From the NCBI GenBank assembly GCA_016840425.1, contig JAEOSI010000160.1:1-5445 (forward strand): 5,445 nt of DNA, in the 5' to 3' direction. This DNA is from Candidatus Wukongarchaeum yapensis (GTDB lineage Archaea; Asgardarchaeota; Wukongarchaeia; Wukongarchaeales; Wukongarchaeaceae). The position numbers and the translations under genes were made by a program. A model generated the notes under the pieces. That model was not told the origin of the DNA. It saw only the letters and a program-made list of their open reading frames with translations, and ran no database searches. Below are positions 575 through 5,445 of this stretch, in pieces (the first letter of the stretch is position 1; the number at the start of each line of letters is the position of its first letter).

Positions 575-1771
575 ATGGAGCTTGATGTTATTGTTCCTGG
601 TGTTAGGGCGGAAGTTGTTGGTAGTGAGTGTATAACCGTTTTGTTTGATAGGCCTTGGAAGACTTTGAGTTCTGCTTTTTTTAATGGGGGTTTTGTCGAT
701 TCGAGGTCTGTTTTAAACATGCATGTGCCGAAAAGTTATAGGCATCAGGATCCTGAGGGACATATTAGGAGGATGATCGAGAAGGTTGGATTGCCTGAGC
801 CTGTGGTTGGGATGATGACTGCTGCTGAAATGGAGAATGTTGCTGTAGTTAGTAAGGAGGATGAGGGAGGGGAGTTTAGGGTTACTGCTATTATTACTGC
901 AGGTGTTTCTAATCCTGCTACCGCGGGAGAAAGACAGCGTTTTCCTTTTCTTAATAATACTATCATCGTGATTTTGCTCCTTGATGGTGATTTTTCTCCA
1001 GCAGCTATGACGGGTTCTGTGTCAGTTGTTACTGAGGCTAAGACTGTAGCTTTGCGGGAGCTTGATGTTCGAAGTTTTTCGATGGATTCAGGTTATAGTT
1101 TGTTGACTAATCTTGCAAGCGGGACTACGACCGATACTGTGGTTGTTTCGTGTACTGGTAAGGGAAAGTCGGTTTGGTTTAATAGTACGGGTATTGAAGT
1201 GGGGAGGTTGATGGCATTGGCGGTTAAGGAGGGCGTTTTGGAAGCTTTGGAAAAACAGGATAAGCTGCGGGTTGGTAGACCTTTGATGAATCGACTTGAG
1301 GAGAGAGGGGTTTTTATCGATCATTTTATGAGGATTGCAATAGACCACTATTTTTCCCACTTTTCCGAGAATGAATCAAGAGATGATCTACCTGGGGAGG
1401 AAATTTTCAGGAAGGAGTTGGAGGAAGTTTTGTCTAGCTCTGGAGGAGTTTGTTCTCTTGTGATGGCGGGGCTTGGCTTGGAGAAGGAGGAGGAAAGAAG
1501 AGGGTTTATGCCTTATGAGGGGGAAATAGTTCTCCGAAAAGGGAGTAATGAGGAAATTCATAGGCTTCCTTCACGGGTTTTAGGAGGGGTTATTGCGGAT
1601 TATATAGGGGGAATGAAAGGATCAAAATTATATGAAGAAAGTGTTGAGATTTTCGAAAAAACAGGGAATAACCCCTTGAAAGGTGAGATGACGCCAACAA
1701 TGTATTATGTTCTTTCAGGGATTATTGGAGGAGTAATAGGCCGAATAGTTAAAAAAGGACGAAATGAATGA
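575..1771 (+). CDS. cbiZ: Adenosylcobinamide amidohydrolase CbiZ (about aa 1-235) fused to a C-terminal CobZ-like (archaeal alpha-ribazole phosphatase / PgpA-like) domain; CbiS-like architecture
   Basis: The N-terminal part has CbiZ motifs: LSSAFFNGG, VLNMHVP, GMMTAA, TAGVSNP, VTEAKTVALREL and ASGTTTD. The C-terminal part (RLEERG...ELEEVLS...SLVMAGLGLE...VLGGVIADYIGGMKG...GIIGG) follows the recalled CobZ pattern. It has a strong RBS and lies next to ecfT. Confidence 0.85.
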   Translation: MELDVIVPGVRAEVVGSECITVLFDRPWKTLSSAFFNGGFVDSRSVLNMHVPKSYRHQDPEGHIRRMIEKVGLPEPVVGMMTAAEMENVAVVSKEDEGGEFRVTAIITAGVSNPATAGERQRFPFLNNTIIVILLLDGDFSPAAMTGSVSVVTEAKTVALRELDVRSFSMDSGYSLLTNLASGTTTDTVVVSCTGKGKSVWFNSTGIEVGRLMALAVKEGVLEALEKQDKLRVGRPLMNRLEERGVFIDHFMRIAIDHYFSHFSENESRDDLPGEEIFRKELEEVLSSSGGVCSLVMAGLGLEKEEERRGFMPYEGEIVLRKGSNEEIHRLPSRVLGGVIADYIGGMKGSKLYEESVEIFEKTGNNPLKGEMTPTMYYVLSGIIGGVIGRIVKKGRNE

Positions 1772-1790
1772 AAATAATCCCTTTAAATCC

Positions 1791-1809
1791 TTGAATTAAG
1801 TTGAATTAA
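1791..1809. repeat. Short tandem direct repeat TTGAATTAA x2 (10-bp period), flanked by two CTTTAAAT copies (1781-1788, 1815-1822)
   Basis: Read directly from the sequence: ttgaattaa-g-ttgaattaa. Function unknown. Confidence 0.55.
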
Positions 1810-1956
1810 AATAACTTTAAATTTCGGGTTTTTTAGGAAGCAAAAGCTGGGAGGCTTAGTTATAACGTTGACGGGATTTCTGTTGGAAATACGCCGAAAA
1901 TATGGAGAAAAACCTAATTTAATTTTCCTCCTGCCAATTTTTACGTGGGACCCAGG

Positions 1957-1970
1957 TTCTTTTTTATTTT
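1957..1970 (+). terminator. Candidate archaeal oligo-T terminator (a second T6 tract lies at 1829-1834)
   Basis: ttcttttttatttt lies in the convergent intergenic region downstream of the + strand operon. Confidence 0.35.
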
Positions 1971-1983
1971 AAGAAGGTTAGGT

Positions 1984-2358
1984 TTAGAAAGGGTGTTCGG
2001 CTTCTTCGCAGGGCTCTTCTAAGGGTGTAGTTTCATTTTTTAGGAATTCGTTTATGGCTTCTTTTAGGGTTTGTGACTTGGATGTTAGTACTTTTATTCC
2101 GTGGCTTTTCATTATGTTTATTCCTCTGGGTCCCATATTTCGAACGATTATCACGTTTGCCCCGCTGTCAGCAATTATGATCGCTGGGCGTCCTCTCCCT
2201 CCAAAGTGTTGGCCTTTGTTCTCTGTATAGGTTATTTTTTCGACTTTTCCTTCATCAGATATCTCCACATTGGCGAAGAAGGGAGCTTTTCCCAAATGGG
2301 GGAATATTTGGGCGTTATCATTATCTTTTCTATCTACTGGTATCACTACTTTTACCAT
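1984..2358 (-). CDS. NifB/NifX family (COG1433, MTH1175/ORP-like) small metal-cofactor-binding protein, paralogue 1
   Basis: MVKVVIP start, F-P-H-L-G-K-A-P-F-F (variant of HFGRAPYF), N-x-G-Q-H-F-G-G and VIIVRNMGPRG...GIKV motifs. Cys/His acidic tail PCEEAEH; 124 aa. Possible RBS GTGAG at 2374-2370. Confidence 0.9.
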   Translation of the reverse strand: MVKVVIPVDRKDNDNAQIFPHLGKAPFFANVEISDEGKVEKITYTENKGQHFGGRGRPAIIIADSGANVIIVRNMGPRGINIMKSHGIKVLTSKSQTLKEAINEFLKNETTPLEEPCEEAEHPF

Positions 2359-2476
2359 GAGTTTGTCATCTCACTTTGTCTTATTTTATGGTTTTTATCG
2401 AAAAGTTTTTAGGAGGATTAAAGAATGGCTATCTTAAATAATTATTGTTTATTTTTTAAACAGGGAAGGAAGGAAA
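2359..2476. promoter_or_regulatory. AT-rich divergent promoter region between the NifX-like gene (-) and the Lrp regulator (+)
   Basis: 118-bp gap between divergent starts. TATA-like cttaaata (2433-2440) and ttttaaa (2454-2460). Purine-rich RBS-like (GGAA)x3 at 2464-2475. Exact promoter positions not resolvable. Confidence 0.5.
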
Positions 2477-3046
2477 ATGGATAACATTGAGAGGAAGATA
2501 ATTAAAGAGCTTATAAAAAATGCGCGTAAATCCTACAAAGAAATCGGAAAAACGATCGGATATACAACGATGGGTGCAAAAAAAAGGTTGGACAAACTCC
2601 TAAAAAACCAGTCAATCAAAATTACACCCCTCCTTAACGTAAAAAAACTCAAACTATATCTCGCCCTTGTTTTATTAGAAGTGGAGAATGCTAAAAAACT
2701 AAGTGAAATACTTCAAAGATTTGAAAGGTGTCCAAGGGTAATCAATGTTTTTACGGCCCTTAGCAGATACAACCTAATAGCCCTAATATTTGCAGAAGAC
2801 AAGGATACACTCGAAAGTATATCCATTGTGAAATCTTCTATTAGAAGCCAAGAAGGTATCCGGCGCTCCGAACTTTGCCCAATAGGCGAAACATTCTATT
2901 CAAATTTCCTCCCAATAAGGGAAGACTTATGCCACAAAGATTTAGATAAAAGCCCTTGCGGCATATACTGCATAACTTGTGAAAGATTCGAAAACAATAG
3001 ATGCGTAGGATGCGCTGCAACAAAACATTACAGAGGACTACTATGA
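2477..3046 (+). CDS. Lrp/AsnC family transcriptional regulator with C-terminal Cys-rich (DUF3795-like) extension
   Basis: N-terminal wHTH (MDNIERKIIKELIKNARKSYKEIGKTIG...AKKRLDKL), then a RAM-like domain (LYLALVLLEV...VINVFTALSRYNLIALIFAED) and a tail C161-x3-C165-x2-C168-x7-C176-x2-C179. Confidence 0.9.
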   Translation: MDNIERKIIKELIKNARKSYKEIGKTIGYTTMGAKKRLDKLLKNQSIKITPLLNVKKLKLYLALVLLEVENAKKLSEILQRFERCPRVINVFTALSRYNLIALIFAEDKDTLESISIVKSSIRSQEGIRRSELCPIGETFYSNFLPIREDLCHKDLDKSPCGIYCITCERFENNRCVGCAATKHYRGLL

Positions 3047-3048
3047 CC

Positions 3049-3079
3049 TTTTCTTTTCATTTTGCCTTTTTGTGGTTTT
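3049..3079 (+). terminator. Oligo-T run cluster, likely archaeal terminator of the Lrp gene
   Basis: ttttcttttcattttgcctttttgtggtttt begins 2 nt after the TGA at 3044-3046. Confidence 0.55.
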
Positions 3080-3131
3080 GGACTATTATAATATATTAAA
3101 AACCTTATTTCTAGAACTAGTTTTGATTTTT

Positions 3132-3989
3132 TTAGAGGAGGTAGTTTATTCTTTTCCAAATTTTTTTAATTTCTGTTGAGGCTTTTCCGTCTGGAGAGTA
3201 TTCTATTACATTTTTTCTTTCAAGCATCGCTTTTATTATATCTTCATCATATGGGATTTTTCCAAGGATTGGTATGTTGTTGTTGCTGCAATATTCTTCG
3301 ATTTTTTTCGAGTTTTCTAAGTTTATATCATGTTTGTTTATGCAAAGGGTGGGAAACACGTTGAAATGGCGTGTAACTTTTAGGATCCTGTAAAAGTCGT
3401 GGAGGCCGGATATTGTAGGTTCTGTAACGATTAAAGCCATGTCGATTCCGGTTATTGAAGCGATCACAGGGCAACCTATTCCGGGGGAGCCGTCAACGAT
3501 TATAAGGTCTTTATGGAGGTTTTCCGCCAAAGTTGTGGCCTTTCCCCGAACAAAGGATACGAGTTTTCCCGAAGCTCCTTCCCCCATATTTAGTTCAGCG
3601 TGAACCAATGGACCAAATCTGGTTTCCGAGGTATATAAGTAGCCCGTTTCTCTATTTTCTAGGTTGATGGCGTTTTTTGGGCATATATAAACACATAAGC
3701 CGCAACCTTCACATTTTGAAGACTGAATCTTCAAGTTTTTTATTGCGTCGAATCGGCAAAATTCTTCACATTTACCGCATTCGTTACACTTTGAATCGTC
3801 TTTTGAAGCAATTTTAGACCCTGTAAAGATCTCTTTTTCCTTTACTTCGGGTTTTAAGATGATATGGAGATCTGGAGCGTCAACATCGCAATCAGCCATA
3901 ATGCAATTTTCAGCAAGGGAAGCAAAGGCAGCTACAAGGGTTGTTTTTCCTGTTCCCCCTTTTCCACTAATTATCGTTAACTGCTTCAT
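3132..3989 (-). CDS. MinD/ParA-superfamily P-loop ATPase with inserted 2x[4Fe-4S] ferredoxin domain (COG1149 type), subunit B
   Basis: The strand is minus, contrary to the ORF track: the reverse complement of 3989-3960 reads atg aag cag tta acg ata att agt gga aaa. Deviant Walker A SGKGGTGKTT, DCDVDAPD, CNECGKCEEFC, CEGCGLCVYICP, DGSPGIGCP and VTEPT motifs. RBS AAGGAGG at 4003-3997. Confidence 0.95.
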   Translation of the reverse strand: MKQLTIISGKGGTGKTTLVAAFASLAENCIMADCDVDAPDLHIILKPEVKEKEIFTGSKIASKDDSKCNECGKCEEFCRFDAIKNLKIQSSKCEGCGLCVYICPKNAINLENRETGYLYTSETRFGPLVHAELNMGEGASGKLVSFVRGKATTLAENLHKDLIIVDGSPGIGCPVIASITGIDMALIVTEPTISGLHDFYRILKVTRHFNVFPTLCINKHDINLENSKKIEEYCSNNNIPILGKIPYDEDIIKAMLERKNVIEYSPDGKASTEIKKIWKRINYLL

Positions 3990-4831
3990 TTTTCTCCCTC
4001 CTTTATATGTTGGTATAGGTTAAGAAACTCTTCTTTCCATCCAAGCATTTCATTTACGAAAGGTATGCCCTTTGAGTAAAACTTAGCGATCTCAAGATCA
4101 TAAGGGATTTTCATTAGGAGAGGAATCTCTTTTTCTTCGCAATATTTTTCAACACTATTATCGCCAATACCGTCTTTGTTAATAATGACCCCGAAAGGTA
4201 TTTTCATAGCGTTTATCAACTTTATTGAAAGGGTTAGGTCGTAGAAGCCGAAGGGAGTAGGCTCTGTAACTAATATGCAGAAATCGACATCTTCAACCGT
4301 TTTAATTGCTGGACAAGCGTTGCCCGGGGGAGCATCAAGAATTACAAATTTATCTTCCCTAATTTTGCTTTTTAAAGCTTGTATTATGGAGGTTGAAATT
4401 GCTTCACCTATTTTTAGGATTCCTTGGTAGAACTCGATTTTTCCGTTCGTATATCCCCGTTTAATTTCGCCTATTTTCCTAGGTTTTTCGGTGATGGCTT
4501 CTTTTGGGCATGCTATGGAACATAAACCGCAACCCCTACAAGATTCCTCTAAAAGCATTATGTTTTTTGGAAGCACTGCAATAGCGTTATATTGACAGAG
4601 AATTGCGCATTTTCCACAAAAGTTGCATTTATCTTCATCAAAAACAGGGGTAGGAACAGTTATATCTTCCGCTATTTCTAGGGATGTGTTGAGAAATAGG
4701 TGAACGTTTGGTTCTTCTACGTCACAGTCTATAAGTTGTACCTCTATTTCATCTGCAAGGGAGAGGGCAAGATTTACCGCTATGGTAGTTTTTCCTGTTC
4801 CTCCTTTTCCGCTAACTATTGCTATCTTCAC
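3986..4831 (-). CDS. MinD/ParA-superfamily P-loop ATPase with inserted 2x[4Fe-4S] ferredoxin domain (COG1149 type), subunit A
   Basis: GTG start with AGGTG RBS at 4843-4839. Motifs SGKGGTGKTT, DCDVEEPN, CNFCGKCAILC, CRGCGLCSIACP, DAPPGNACP and VTEPTPFG. Its TGA overlaps the next ATG (ATGA, 3989-3986). Confidence 0.95.
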   Translation of the reverse strand: MKIAIVSGKGGTGKTTIAVNLALSLADEIEVQLIDCDVEEPNVHLFLNTSLEIAEDITVPTPVFDEDKCNFCGKCAILCQYNAIAVLPKNIMLLEESCRGCGLCSIACPKEAITEKPRKIGEIKRGYTNGKIEFYQGILKIGEAISTSIIQALKSKIREDKFVILDAPPGNACPAIKTVEDVDFCILVTEPTPFGFYDLTLSIKLINAMKIPFGVIINKDGIGDNSVEKYCEEKEIPLLMKIPYDLEIAKFYSKGIPFVNEMLGWKEEFLNLYQHIKEGEK

Positions 4832-4838
4832 AAAAAAA

Positions 4839-4843
4839 CACCT
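4839..4843 (-). promoter_or_regulatory. Shine-Dalgarno site (AGGTG) for ATPase A
   Basis: 7 nt upstream of GTG4831; complementary to the extended 16S rRNA 3' end commonly used in archaea. Confidence 0.7.
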
Positions 4844-4919
4844 GAAAAAATCTGAATCATTCTATCTTTCTCTTTTTTTGCTTTTTAAATAGAAGCCGGG
4901 AATATTCTAAGGATTCCTC

Positions 4920-5303
4920 TTATATTCTTCTGTACCCTTTTCTTTCAATACGTCTTCCTAGTTCTGTGGGCAATTCTATTTCTTTTAACTCCCCTCTTTT
5001 ATAAAGTTCTAGCAAATCGGATATCTTCCCAGTTTTACCCATGAAAAATTTTATCCCTGCAACTTTTAAAACTTGGAAAGCTTTTGGGCCAATTTTACCA
5101 CTTATAATGGCGTTGACATTTTTGTTTACGAGGATTTGTGCTGCCTGAATACCAGCACCGTTTAAAGCATTAACCCCCGTATTTTGCAGATTTTCGACCT
5201 GCATATCATTTGTGTCGATTATTACGAAGTAGGGACAACGGCCAAAACGTGAAGAAAGTTGAGCCTTTAACCCTTTACCCATAGATGGAAACGCGATCTT
5301 CAA
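4920..5303 (-). CDS. NifB/NifX family (COG1433) protein, orange-protein (ORP)-like, paralogue 2
   Basis: TTG start with GAAGGA RBS at 5316-5311. Motifs MKIAFPS, SSRFGRCPYFVIID, GAGIQAAQ and IISGKIGPKAFQVL..AGIK; basic Arg-rich tail (GRRIERKGYRRI). Confidence 0.92.
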   Translation of the reverse strand: MKIAFPSMGKGLKAQLSSRFGRCPYFVIIDTNDMQVENLQNTGVNALNGAGIQAAQILVNKNVNAIISGKIGPKAFQVLKVAGIKFFMGKTGKISDLLELYKRGELKEIELPTELGRRIERKGYRRI

Positions 5304-5445
5304 GCTTAATTCCTTCTATATAAATCTAAAAACTTGTCAAATCTAAAGAATTAACCCTATTTTTTATAAGAAAAATATCTTTAACCTTTTAAAACAAACA
5401 ACGGATATATTTATTTATTATATTAGGCTTTCCCTTTCTGTTTAG
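5304..5445 (-). promoter_or_regulatory. AT-rich upstream/promoter region of the ORP-ATPase-ATPase unit, with short direct and inverted repeats
   Basis: No supported ORF. AAATCTAAA x2 (5322-5330, 5339-5347), TATTTTT-N6-AAAAATA (5358-5377) and TTAACC x2 (5351-5356, 5381-5386). Confidence 0.5.

Follow-up and report, generated by a model that had tools for sequence, protein, structure and literature searches.

A cysteine-rich Lrp-type regulator linked to an orange-protein-type gene cluster in Candidatus Wukongarchaeum yapensis and other archaea

The DNA considered here, called the window below, is the whole of a 5,445-bp contig (G000:C167) of Candidatus Wukongarchaeum yapensis, and the subject of this report is the five-gene cluster that fills positions 1984 to 5303 of it, a cluster of the orange protein (ORP) type with a cysteine-rich regulator of the Lrp/AsnC family, here named Lrp-Cys, in its midst. 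Reading from the left, NifX1 (1984-2358, minus strand, 124 aa) matches the NifX-fold model PF02579 (E=2.3e-17); Lrp-Cys (2477-3046, plus strand, 189 aa) joins an HTH_AsnC helix-turn-helix (HTH) domain (E=1.8e-8) to a RAM-type domain; MinD_A (3132-3989, minus strand, 285 aa) and MinD_B (3986-4831, minus strand, 281 aa) each match CbiA, ParA and, twice, Fer4; and NifX2 (4920-5303, minus strand, 127 aa), which starts at a TTG codon, is again a PF02579 protein (E=9.5e-23). Between NifX1 and Lrp-Cys lies a divergent intergenic region of 118 bp (2359-2476) with a 15-bp palindromic box, GTTTA-N5-TAAAC (2447-2461), the candidate operator of Lrp-Cys, and an AT-rich region extends from upstream of NifX2 to the end of the contig (5304-5445). 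Pfam matches and the translations of the open reading frames (ORFs) confirm all five genes where the original prediction, made from the sequence alone, had placed them, and the PF02579 search that it proposed recovers both NifX genes; its view of the extent of the module holds only in part, since the five genes are present but the module extends beyond the window on the right, where the contig ends too. None of the five proteins reaches the cut-off of an NCBIfam equivalog, Rfam finds no RNA families in the window, and a scan for sigma70-type promoters and intrinsic terminators, which is unsuited to an archaeon, gave nothing above shuffled expectation.

The gene order is real and no assembly artefact, because a conspecific contig of an NCBI assembly (L064), 98.4% identical to positions 1683-5445 of the window, has the same order, and because metagenome contigs of independent runs (marine-sediment, mangrove) bridge the junctions NifX1/Lrp-Cys, Lrp-Cys/MinD_A and MinD_A/MinD_B. 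Marine, mangrove and marsh sediments are the source of the DNA runs in which the stretch occurs. Metatranscriptome contigs from one run cover parts of MinD_A and MinD_B and the 3′ end of NifX1, with DNA carry-over possible; Lrp-Cys and NifX2 lie outside their cover, a lack that proves nothing.

The central observation is that the pairing of Lrp-Cys with ORP-type genes is conserved. A survey of species-representative genomes provided 80 Lrp-Cys loci (L067-L146), mostly from Bathyarchaeia with a few from Asgard archaea, whose neighbourhoods were analysed by tblastn, and ten loci were annotated individually. Across these ten, Lrp-Cys recurrently stands divergent from an operon of the order Mrp(PF10609)-NifX-NifX-(NifU_N)-MinD-MinD, with DUF134, DUF5320 and a further NifX gene past the ATPases; by best matches, the canonical operon reads Mrp, NifX2-type, NifX1-type, MinD_B-type, MinD_A-type. 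In the survey, a divergent Mrp or NifX gene lies at most 400 bp from Lrp-Cys at 55 of 76 loci (Mrp at 43, NifX at 12). Among the 52 loci with at least 5 kb of upstream sequence, a NifX gene is present within 8 kb at 47, an Mrp gene at 39 and two MinD-ferredoxin ATPases at 34, and a NifU_N scaffold gene is found within many of the operons. The linkage covers two phyla-level groups, Bathyarchaeia and Asgard (G013 of the Atabeyarchaeia, G033, and the genus of the window), and in the family tree the ORP-linked state runs across the core, with unlinked members on long or derived branches. Linkage between Lrp-Cys and ORP genes, on which the original prediction depended, is therefore a conserved feature on the evidence of both the adjacent Mrp or NifX genes and the NifX genes within 8 kb. 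We take regulation of ORP genes to be its conserved state, given that the promoter region of Lrp-Cys is, in most species, also that of the operon with both ATPases.

The box is the second element that these loci share. The intergenic regions upstream of Lrp-Cys are otherwise unalignable, and what they have in common is the palindrome GTTTA-N5-TAAAC. With at most one mismatch it starts between -24 and -37 from the Lrp-Cys ATG at 12 of 12 ORP-linked loci, and it is absent from the promoters of unlinked Lrp-Cys paralogues. In the wide set, 76 of 79 loci have it at about -25 to -33, one mismatch again being allowed, against a background of ~1e-4 per position (525 kb of the same loci); at 64 of the 79 there are two boxes 30-32 bp apart, or three helical turns, with an AT-rich TATA-like element between them. 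The window holds one exact box, which ends 15 bp upstream of the Lrp-Cys ATG, and the AT-rich stretch at ~2434-2445, directly upstream of the box, is by its position a putative TATA-like element. From the position of the box and its co-occurrence with the gene, we infer that Lrp-Cys binds GTTTA-N5-TAAAC, and a palindrome at the regulator’s own promoter suggests autoregulation.

Lrp-Cys itself has an AsnC-type HTH (PF13404, E=1.8e-8; PF13412, E=1.6e-7) with profile matches to PH1519, LrpA and AsnC among others, followed in the AlphaFold2 (AF2) model by a beta-alpha-beta-beta-alpha-beta RAM domain at residues 61-136, which the RAM models PF22482 and PF01037 match weakly. The model is of good quality (predicted local distance difference test, pLDDT, 88; 86-92 for the C-terminal tail when modelled at full length) and superposes on solved Lrp proteins, PH0061 and PH0140 among them, with TM-scores of 0.74-0.83 by target. 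Fold searches with the full model return Lrp proteins only, and three AlphaFold database (AFDB) clusters match over the whole length including the tail. None of the named Lrp equivalogs (LysM, AsnC, LrpA, Lrp) exceeds its NCBIfam cut-off, the best being LysM with 47 bits against 180. What sets the protein apart is a C-terminal tail of ~45 aa with five invariant cysteines (codons 2957-3013), in which the motif C161-x3-C165-x2-C168-x7-C176-x2-C179 and Y185 show no variation across 28 diverse family members; in the RAM domain, C85 is invariant and C120 nearly so (54 members). Binding of an Fe-S cluster or a metal is the most likely role of this tail. Fe-S family models do not match the tail, an ESM Atlas feature search with it gave no usable match, and when folded alone it reaches a pLDDT of 55, too low for a fold search. 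An assignment of the tail to DUF3795 (PF12675) was tried and rejected: there is no Pfam match at E<=10, the hhalign probability is 0.5%, and the PF12675 model finds solely an unrelated gene in the genome to which the window belongs. The family comprises 73 clusters at 50% identity (E<=1e-30), mainly from Bathyarchaeia and also from Helarchaeales, Odinarchaeota and other Asgard archaea. Paralogues in the window’s own genome stand beside a corrinoid methyltransferase locus (64% identity, in tandem), TauE, MoeA-PBP and HerA/NurA.

Archaeal Lrp or feast/famine regulatory proteins (FFRP), such as Pyrococcus furiosus LrpA (1i1g), PH1519/FL11 (2e1c), PH0061 and PH0140, have the same HTH and RAM fold and, like Lrp-Cys, a palindromic operator with an AT-rich centre at their own promoter. 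Unlike them, Lrp-Cys has the added five-cysteine tail and the two conserved RAM cysteines, and its genomic partners are Fe-S genes, whereas theirs are genes of amino-acid metabolism.

The two ATPases are of the MinD/ParA P-loop type, each with an inserted 2x[4Fe-4S] ferredoxin domain as in Orp3 and Orp4, and both translations contain a deviant Walker A motif, GKGGTGKT, and two CxxCxxCxxxC(P) motifs. They are paralogous (35% identity); the stop of MinD_B and the start of MinD_A overlap by 4 bp, and MinD_A is the last gene of the operon. Homologues, named by some sources ‘MinD superfamily P-loop ATPase, contains an inserted ferredoxin domain’, are abundant, with more than 8000 relatives of MinD_B at E<=1e-20, and there is no solved structure among the members of the family. 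Between MinD_A and the second ATPase of the canonical operons, identity is 50-54%. MinD_B is nearer to proteins of Methanococcoides, Altiarchaeales and Hadesarchaea (55-60% identity) than to the MinD_B-type proteins of the canonical Lrp-linked operons (45-50%), and the ATPase block may therefore be of different origin from the regulator. Beyond the eight ferredoxin cysteines, C34 and C173 of MinD_A and C36, C173 and C231 of MinD_B are invariant; both ATPases have such cysteines in a D-C-D-V motif past the P-loop and a PPGxxCP motif past switch II. Since these are presumably the positions of the inter-subunit cluster ligand in NifH-type ATPases, an additional bridging cluster is possible. A model of a complex between NifX2 and MinD_B plus MinD_A scored 0.07 against a mark of 0.32, in a calculation without controls, which speaks neither for nor against binding.

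NifX2 belongs to the ORP/MTH1175/IssA-clade type, with the invariant FGRCPY motif and a short cationic tail. Compared with solved structures it matches MTH1175 (1eo1, E=4.3e-21), TM1290 (1rdu, 2.5e-20) and the Desulfovibrio gigas orange protein (2wfb, 1.7e-15). Its N-terminus, as set by the TTG start, is in line with those of its homologues, and the sequence stops ~15 residues past the domain; the family consensus has a Gly/Arg tail of ~20 aa. The nearest solved relatives of NifX1 are of the TM1816 type (1t3v and 1o13, E about 2e-12), the orange protein 2wfb being a weaker match (3.5e-4). NifX1 is the counterpart of the second NifX gene of the canonical operon (27-38% identity), and its divergent pairing with Lrp-Cys is kept in G001 (locus L021), a sister species of the same genus. 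Homologues are named ‘predicted Fe-Mo cluster-binding NifX family protein’ by their sources. Neither nifH nor nifB has a match in the 92%-complete own genome, so the NifX-fold proteins have no nitrogenase to serve; the co-occurrence with nifHDK and nifB that marks the nitrogenase NifX/NafY proteins is not found here. A second copy of NifX1, 88% identical, lies elsewhere in the own genome (C117:12864-13665; L046:7862-8666) and adjoins a 110-aa MinD_B-like remnant (81% identity across its P-loop and the first ferredoxin motif); the two are situated between URO-D and FMN-reductase genes, with an Mrp gene 5 kb off.

The best reference point for this gene set is the ORP system of Desulfovibrio, in which the paralogous Orp3 and Orp4 carry two [4Fe-4S] motifs apiece and Orp8 is the orange protein (PMC6345978). 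The orange protein has been isolated with a Mo-Cu-S cluster (cited in PMC6345978). Orp3, Orp4 and Orp8 co-purify, and the Mrp-type Orp9 (MrpORP) transfers Fe-S clusters to them in vitro; the complex has been called ‘putatively involved in cell division’, with MrpORP localised at the poles (PMC6345978). The regulator OrpR is a redox sensor by virtue of a [4Fe-4S] cluster in its PAS domain (PMC8359166). The system of D. vulgaris Hildenborough (Orp3/4/5/8/9, OrpR) and the cluster in the window are alike in the paralogous pair of MinD-type ATPases, with two [4Fe-4S] motifs each, in the NifX-fold orange-protein-like protein and in their confinement to anaerobes. In relatives of the window cluster, too, an Mrp/NBP35 gene is a direct neighbour and two transcription units diverge around a dedicated regulator, and Lrp-Cys is rich in cysteine, like the Fe-S sensor OrpR. 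The control differs: the archaeal cluster has no sigma54, enhancer-binding protein (EBP) or integration host factor control, and its regulator is of the Lrp/AsnC type with another operator. No EBP gene of the kind used in sigma54/OrpR control occurs in the window or its L064 extension, where the regulators are Lrp-Cys and DUF134. A further difference is that D. vulgaris Orp9 fuses Mrp to a NifX-like domain, whereas in relatives of the window cluster an unfused Mrp gene heads the operon; in the own genome the MrpORP fusion model (NF041136) is never matched at cut-off, and Mrp domains (C117, C147, C56) and NifX are separate genes. The window’s species also has extra parts, namely a CDF::NifX transporter, DUF134 and DUF5320, and Mrp is not in the window.

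Among archaea, the genes AF2378-AF2380 of Archaeoglobus fulgidus, a NifX gene and CbiA-superfamily genes that have been equated with orp and are reported to be constitutively highly expressed (PMC3949148), form a comparable NifX and ATPase cluster, likened here by description; no Lrp-Cys regulator is reported for it. The cluster is an ORP-type system of a known kind, and archaeal ORP-type clusters are not new (PMC3949148). The new feature is the combination of Lrp-Cys, its operator and their cross-phylum linkage, which was not found in the literature searched. MTH1175 is placed in the IssA clade (IPR003731), whose members bind iron and sulfide (PMC5524996), and the NifX2 family shares with IssA of P. 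furiosus and with MTH1175 both the domain and a Gly/Arg-rich cationic C-terminus. The NifX2 tail of ~15 residues is far from the long tail of IssA (~70 residues, cationic and rich in Gly, Arg and aromatics), and NifX2 is encoded with ATPases while IssA is encoded alone. Since MTH1175 lies in the IssA clade, NifX2 can, going by its sequence, equally be called a short-tailed IssA-like carrier. The original prediction of an archaeal ORP equivalent is borne out by the match of NifX2 to the D. gigas protein and by ATPases with the Orp3/Orp4 architecture (PMC6345978), and its proposal that Lrp-Cys stands in for OrpR gains weight from OrpR being a [4Fe-4S] redox sensor (PMC8359166).

Our overall reading, which we hold with moderate confidence, is that the cluster constitutes an ORP-type Fe-S or metal-sulfide module with an autoregulating, metal- or redox-sensing Lrp-Cys. 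The module is independent of nitrogenase and most likely handles Fe-S or other metal-sulfide species. From what is known of these families, the NifX-fold proteins would be carriers of anionic Fe-S or metal-sulfide species, and MinD_B and MinD_A probably form an ATP-dependent dimer that would receive, reduce or pass on clusters via its four [4Fe-4S] sites. Because Mrp and NifU genes are regularly in the regulated operon, their company favours handling of Fe-S or iron sulfide over an exotic cofactor. Lrp-Cys would serve as a lineage-specific transcription factor of the ORP module, its dimers sitting on boxes between the TATA-like element and its own start. There it would regulate itself and the divergent ORP genes, meaning NifX1 in the window’s species and, in most Bathyarchaeia and in Atabeyarchaeia, the whole Mrp-NifX-NifX-(NifU)-MinD-MinD operon, with two boxes flanking the shared TATA region. 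Archaeal Lrp proteins are known to repress by blocking the recruitment of polymerase, and by analogy a box between TATA and start site suggests repression of this type. Occupancy or redox state of the tail might then tune DNA binding in a feedback loop resembling that of OrpR.

It is tempting to go one step further. Lrp-Cys might be the first Fe-S-sensing regulator of the Lrp/AsnC family, with a [4Fe-4S] cluster held by the tail cysteines, possibly together with C85 and C120, whose presence or redox state gates binding to the paired boxes around the shared TATA element. It would then provide ORP feedback in Bathyarchaeia and some Asgard archaea as a convergent counterpart of OrpR, with a regulon that in this genome would also take in the corrinoid methyltransferase locus. 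We offer this fuller version tentatively, and would sooner expect it to fail in some part than to hold throughout. The ORP system occurs widely among strict anaerobes, and Desulfovibrio is the only case in which its control is understood; that control depends on sigma54 and OrpR and is unusable for archaea. A dedicated archaeal regulator that is small and has a base-defined, conserved DNA site provides an experimental handle without the need to culture Bathyarchaeia or Asgard archaea. If the tail does bind an Fe-S cluster, this would be a new sensory mode in the main archaeal transcription factor family and would support the notion of a response of ORP-type modules to the Fe-S or redox state of the cell.

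A number of observations weigh against this reading, and they begin with the layout in the species itself. The own assembly has a gap of ~4.4 kb past the window (L064 5478-9857 is without counterpart in G000), and across it L064 gives the order CobT, AIRS-like gene, DUF134 (-), DUF5320 (+), CDF::NifX, NifX2, MinD_B, MinD_A, Lrp-Cys (convergent), NifX1. The ATPase transcription unit, DUF5320 - CDF::NifX - NifX2 - MinD_B - MinD_A, therefore has its start outside the window, beside the divergent DUF134. In the window, Lrp-Cys is convergent with the ATPase operon and its promoter region is common to NifX1 only. There is one box, the distal one, expected 31 bp upstream, having decayed (in G001 it is recognisable, with 1 mismatch), and the spacer upstream of NifX2, in the window (5304-5445) as in L064, contains no GTTTA-N5-TAAAC box. 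With no box upstream of NifX2, direct control of the ATPases by Lrp-Cys is unsupported in this species. The ATPase operon is headed instead by DUF134, with its own conserved TGTG...CACA-type repeats, and is more plausibly under that regulator. Given that the canonical order is Mrp, NifX2-type, NifX1-type, MinD_B-type, MinD_A-type, the order in the window is a rearranged one, with NifX1 the sole gene to remain at the regulator’s promoter. The sister species G001 keeps DUF134, DUF5320, Lrp-Cys and NifX1 without CDF::NifX, NifX2, MinD_B and MinD_A, and no MinD-ferredoxin ATPase was found elsewhere in its 87%-complete genome, so that this species seems to have lost the module’s core. Further points of this kind come from the family and from the box. 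Some members are not ORP-linked (G037, G002, P0092, P0341, and the own paralogues at corrinoid methyltransferase, TauE, MoeA and HerA genes); the spacing C165-x2-C168-x7-C176-x2-C179 fits a Zn(Cys)4 site too; and the own genome has 7 exact boxes against 6.6 expected, no excess by count.

Because there is no genome-wide excess, a regulon can be claimed solely from the places of the exact intergenic copies and not from counts. Two of the seven exact boxes are inside ORFs, outside Lrp-Cys loci, and each of the five intergenic ones belongs to an Lrp-Cys locus, with one in the window and four at the corrinoid locus with the 64% paralogues (C95:1506, 5398, 5460 and C33:4, matching L036:6596, 8432, 12297, 12359). 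These positions suggest that the corrinoid locus and the ORP locus share a regulon. At the corrinoid locus (C95:1-7689, C217:13375-13935; L036), the two tandem paralogues lie between an MFS transporter gene and corrinoid-protein/URO-D-type methyltransferase genes; two of the four exact boxes are 62 bp apart, and the paralogues’ own promoters are without a box. A half box, GTTTAG at 5440-5445 of the window, was considered and dropped, as it lies at the end of the CDF::NifX gene region in L064.

The view of the original prediction that the embedded Lrp-Cys is the obvious candidate for the module’s regulator survives with qualification: the conserved ORP linkage stands behind it, but here Lrp-Cys has a promoter region in common with NifX1 alone, the start of the ATPase operon is beyond the window, DUF134 is a second and more widespread candidate, and Lrp-Cys has paralogues at unrelated loci. 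Carried to its end, this line of argument would make DUF134 the regulator of the ATPase/NifX2 operon, and Lrp-Cys a separate local regulator of itself and NifX1, perhaps also of the corrinoid methyltransferase locus, whose place between ORP genes is due to rearrangement. The divergent DUF134 of L064, the three TGTG...CACA-type repeats kept in the sister species, the lack of an Lrp box upstream of NifX2, the retention of Lrp-Cys in G001 without ATPases and the four exact boxes in the corrinoid locus of the conspecific genome all speak for such a division of labour, as does the presence of DUF134 beside canonical Bathyarchaeial clusters. We nevertheless find it doubtful as a full account, for in most species the Lrp-Cys promoter region is common to the operon with both ATPases, the two regulators are not mutually exclusive, and NifX1, the partner of Lrp-Cys here, is itself an ORP-type component. 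No more probable, in our estimate, is that the cysteine tail forms a structural zinc site without sensory role and that Lrp-Cys senses a small molecule through its RAM domain like an ordinary Lrp/AsnC protein. Four of the invariant cysteines, CxxC-x7-CxxC, have a suitable spacing for Zn(Cys)4, no Fe-S family model matches the tail, and the RAM-type fold appears intact in the model, where it superposes on amino-acid-binding archaeal Lrp proteins. A single zinc site, however, would need neither the fifth invariant cysteine, C161 (Cx3Cx2C), nor C85 and C120; the genomic company is one of Fe-S trafficking (Mrp, NifU, NifX-fold), and the bacterial counterpart OrpR uses a [4Fe-4S] cluster (PMC8359166).

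The two other alternatives concern the module rather than its regulator. That it handles a metal other than iron, be it thiomolybdate or thiotungstate, the Mo-Cu of the isolated orange protein or, for corrinoids, cobalt, we regard as improbable. The orange protein was indeed isolated with Mo-Cu-S (cited in PMC6345978), the window lies among the cobalamin salvage genes CbiQ and CbiS with CobT beyond the gap, one of the NifX domains is joined to a CDF cation transporter, and of the Lrp-Cys paralogues one adjoins MoeA and others corrinoid proteins. Yet the recurrent partners, Mrp/NBP35 and the NifU_N scaffold, are Fe-S specific, Orp3-Orp4-Orp8 receive Fe-S clusters from MrpORP in vitro (PMC6345978), iron and sulfide are what the MTH1175/IssA clade binds (PMC5524996), and the other 80 loci do not share the cobalamin neighbourhood. 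Still less credible, and in our opinion very unlikely, is a role of the MinD-like ATPases in cell division or protein positioning instead of cluster handling. Such a role would agree with the MinD/ParA fold and with the division-related description and polar MrpORP reported for the Desulfovibrio complex (PMC6345978), but it leaves aside the eight ferredoxin cysteines and the further invariant ones; in the loci examined the genes encoded alongside the ATPases are invariably those for NifX-fold, Mrp and NifU proteins, never division genes, and in the sister species G001 the ATPases are absent altogether.

Several details of the extended locus and its surroundings may be recorded. CDF::NifX (L064:7858-9880 region), directly upstream of NifX2, encodes a 412-aa CDF cation-efflux transporter (Cation_efflux and ZT_dimer) with a C-terminal NifX-fold domain. 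Between DUF5320 and Lrp-Cys, G001 (L021) has a clean gap where L064 has the 4.2-kb CDF::NifX-NifX2-MinD_B-MinD_A block. The DUF5320 gene, at ~8280-8579 of L064, was missed by the gene caller, which called a 61-aa ORF in another frame. The spacer between DUF134 and DUF5320 (L064:8172-8279; L021:5879-5991) has three TGTG-N6-CACA-like copies, two direct and 24-25 bp apart plus one inverted, conserved in both congeneric species, and these are a candidate DUF134 operator. To the left of the module, the window holds the C-terminal part of CbiQ (3-539) and a CbiS-like fusion of CbiZ and CobZ-type domains (575-1771, 398 aa), which scores 134 bits against a cut-off of 250 for bifunctional CbiS and has a paralogue of 80% identity on contig C69; with CobT beyond the gap, the neighbourhood of the module is one of cobalamin salvage. 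Among the surveyed loci, FeoB stands beside Lrp-Cys at only 3 of 80, and FeoAB/DtxR are occasional neighbours; we base no main argument on them. A metallo-beta-lactamase-fold gene of ~320 aa, in the same direction as Lrp-Cys and absent from the window, directly follows it at 51 of 76 loci. Carbon monoxide dehydrogenase (CODH) alpha-subunit genes of the Prismane type, also absent from the window, lie within 8 kb of Lrp-Cys at 11 of 80 loci, and in L038, annotated in detail, CODH genes are inserted between the Mrp and NifX genes.

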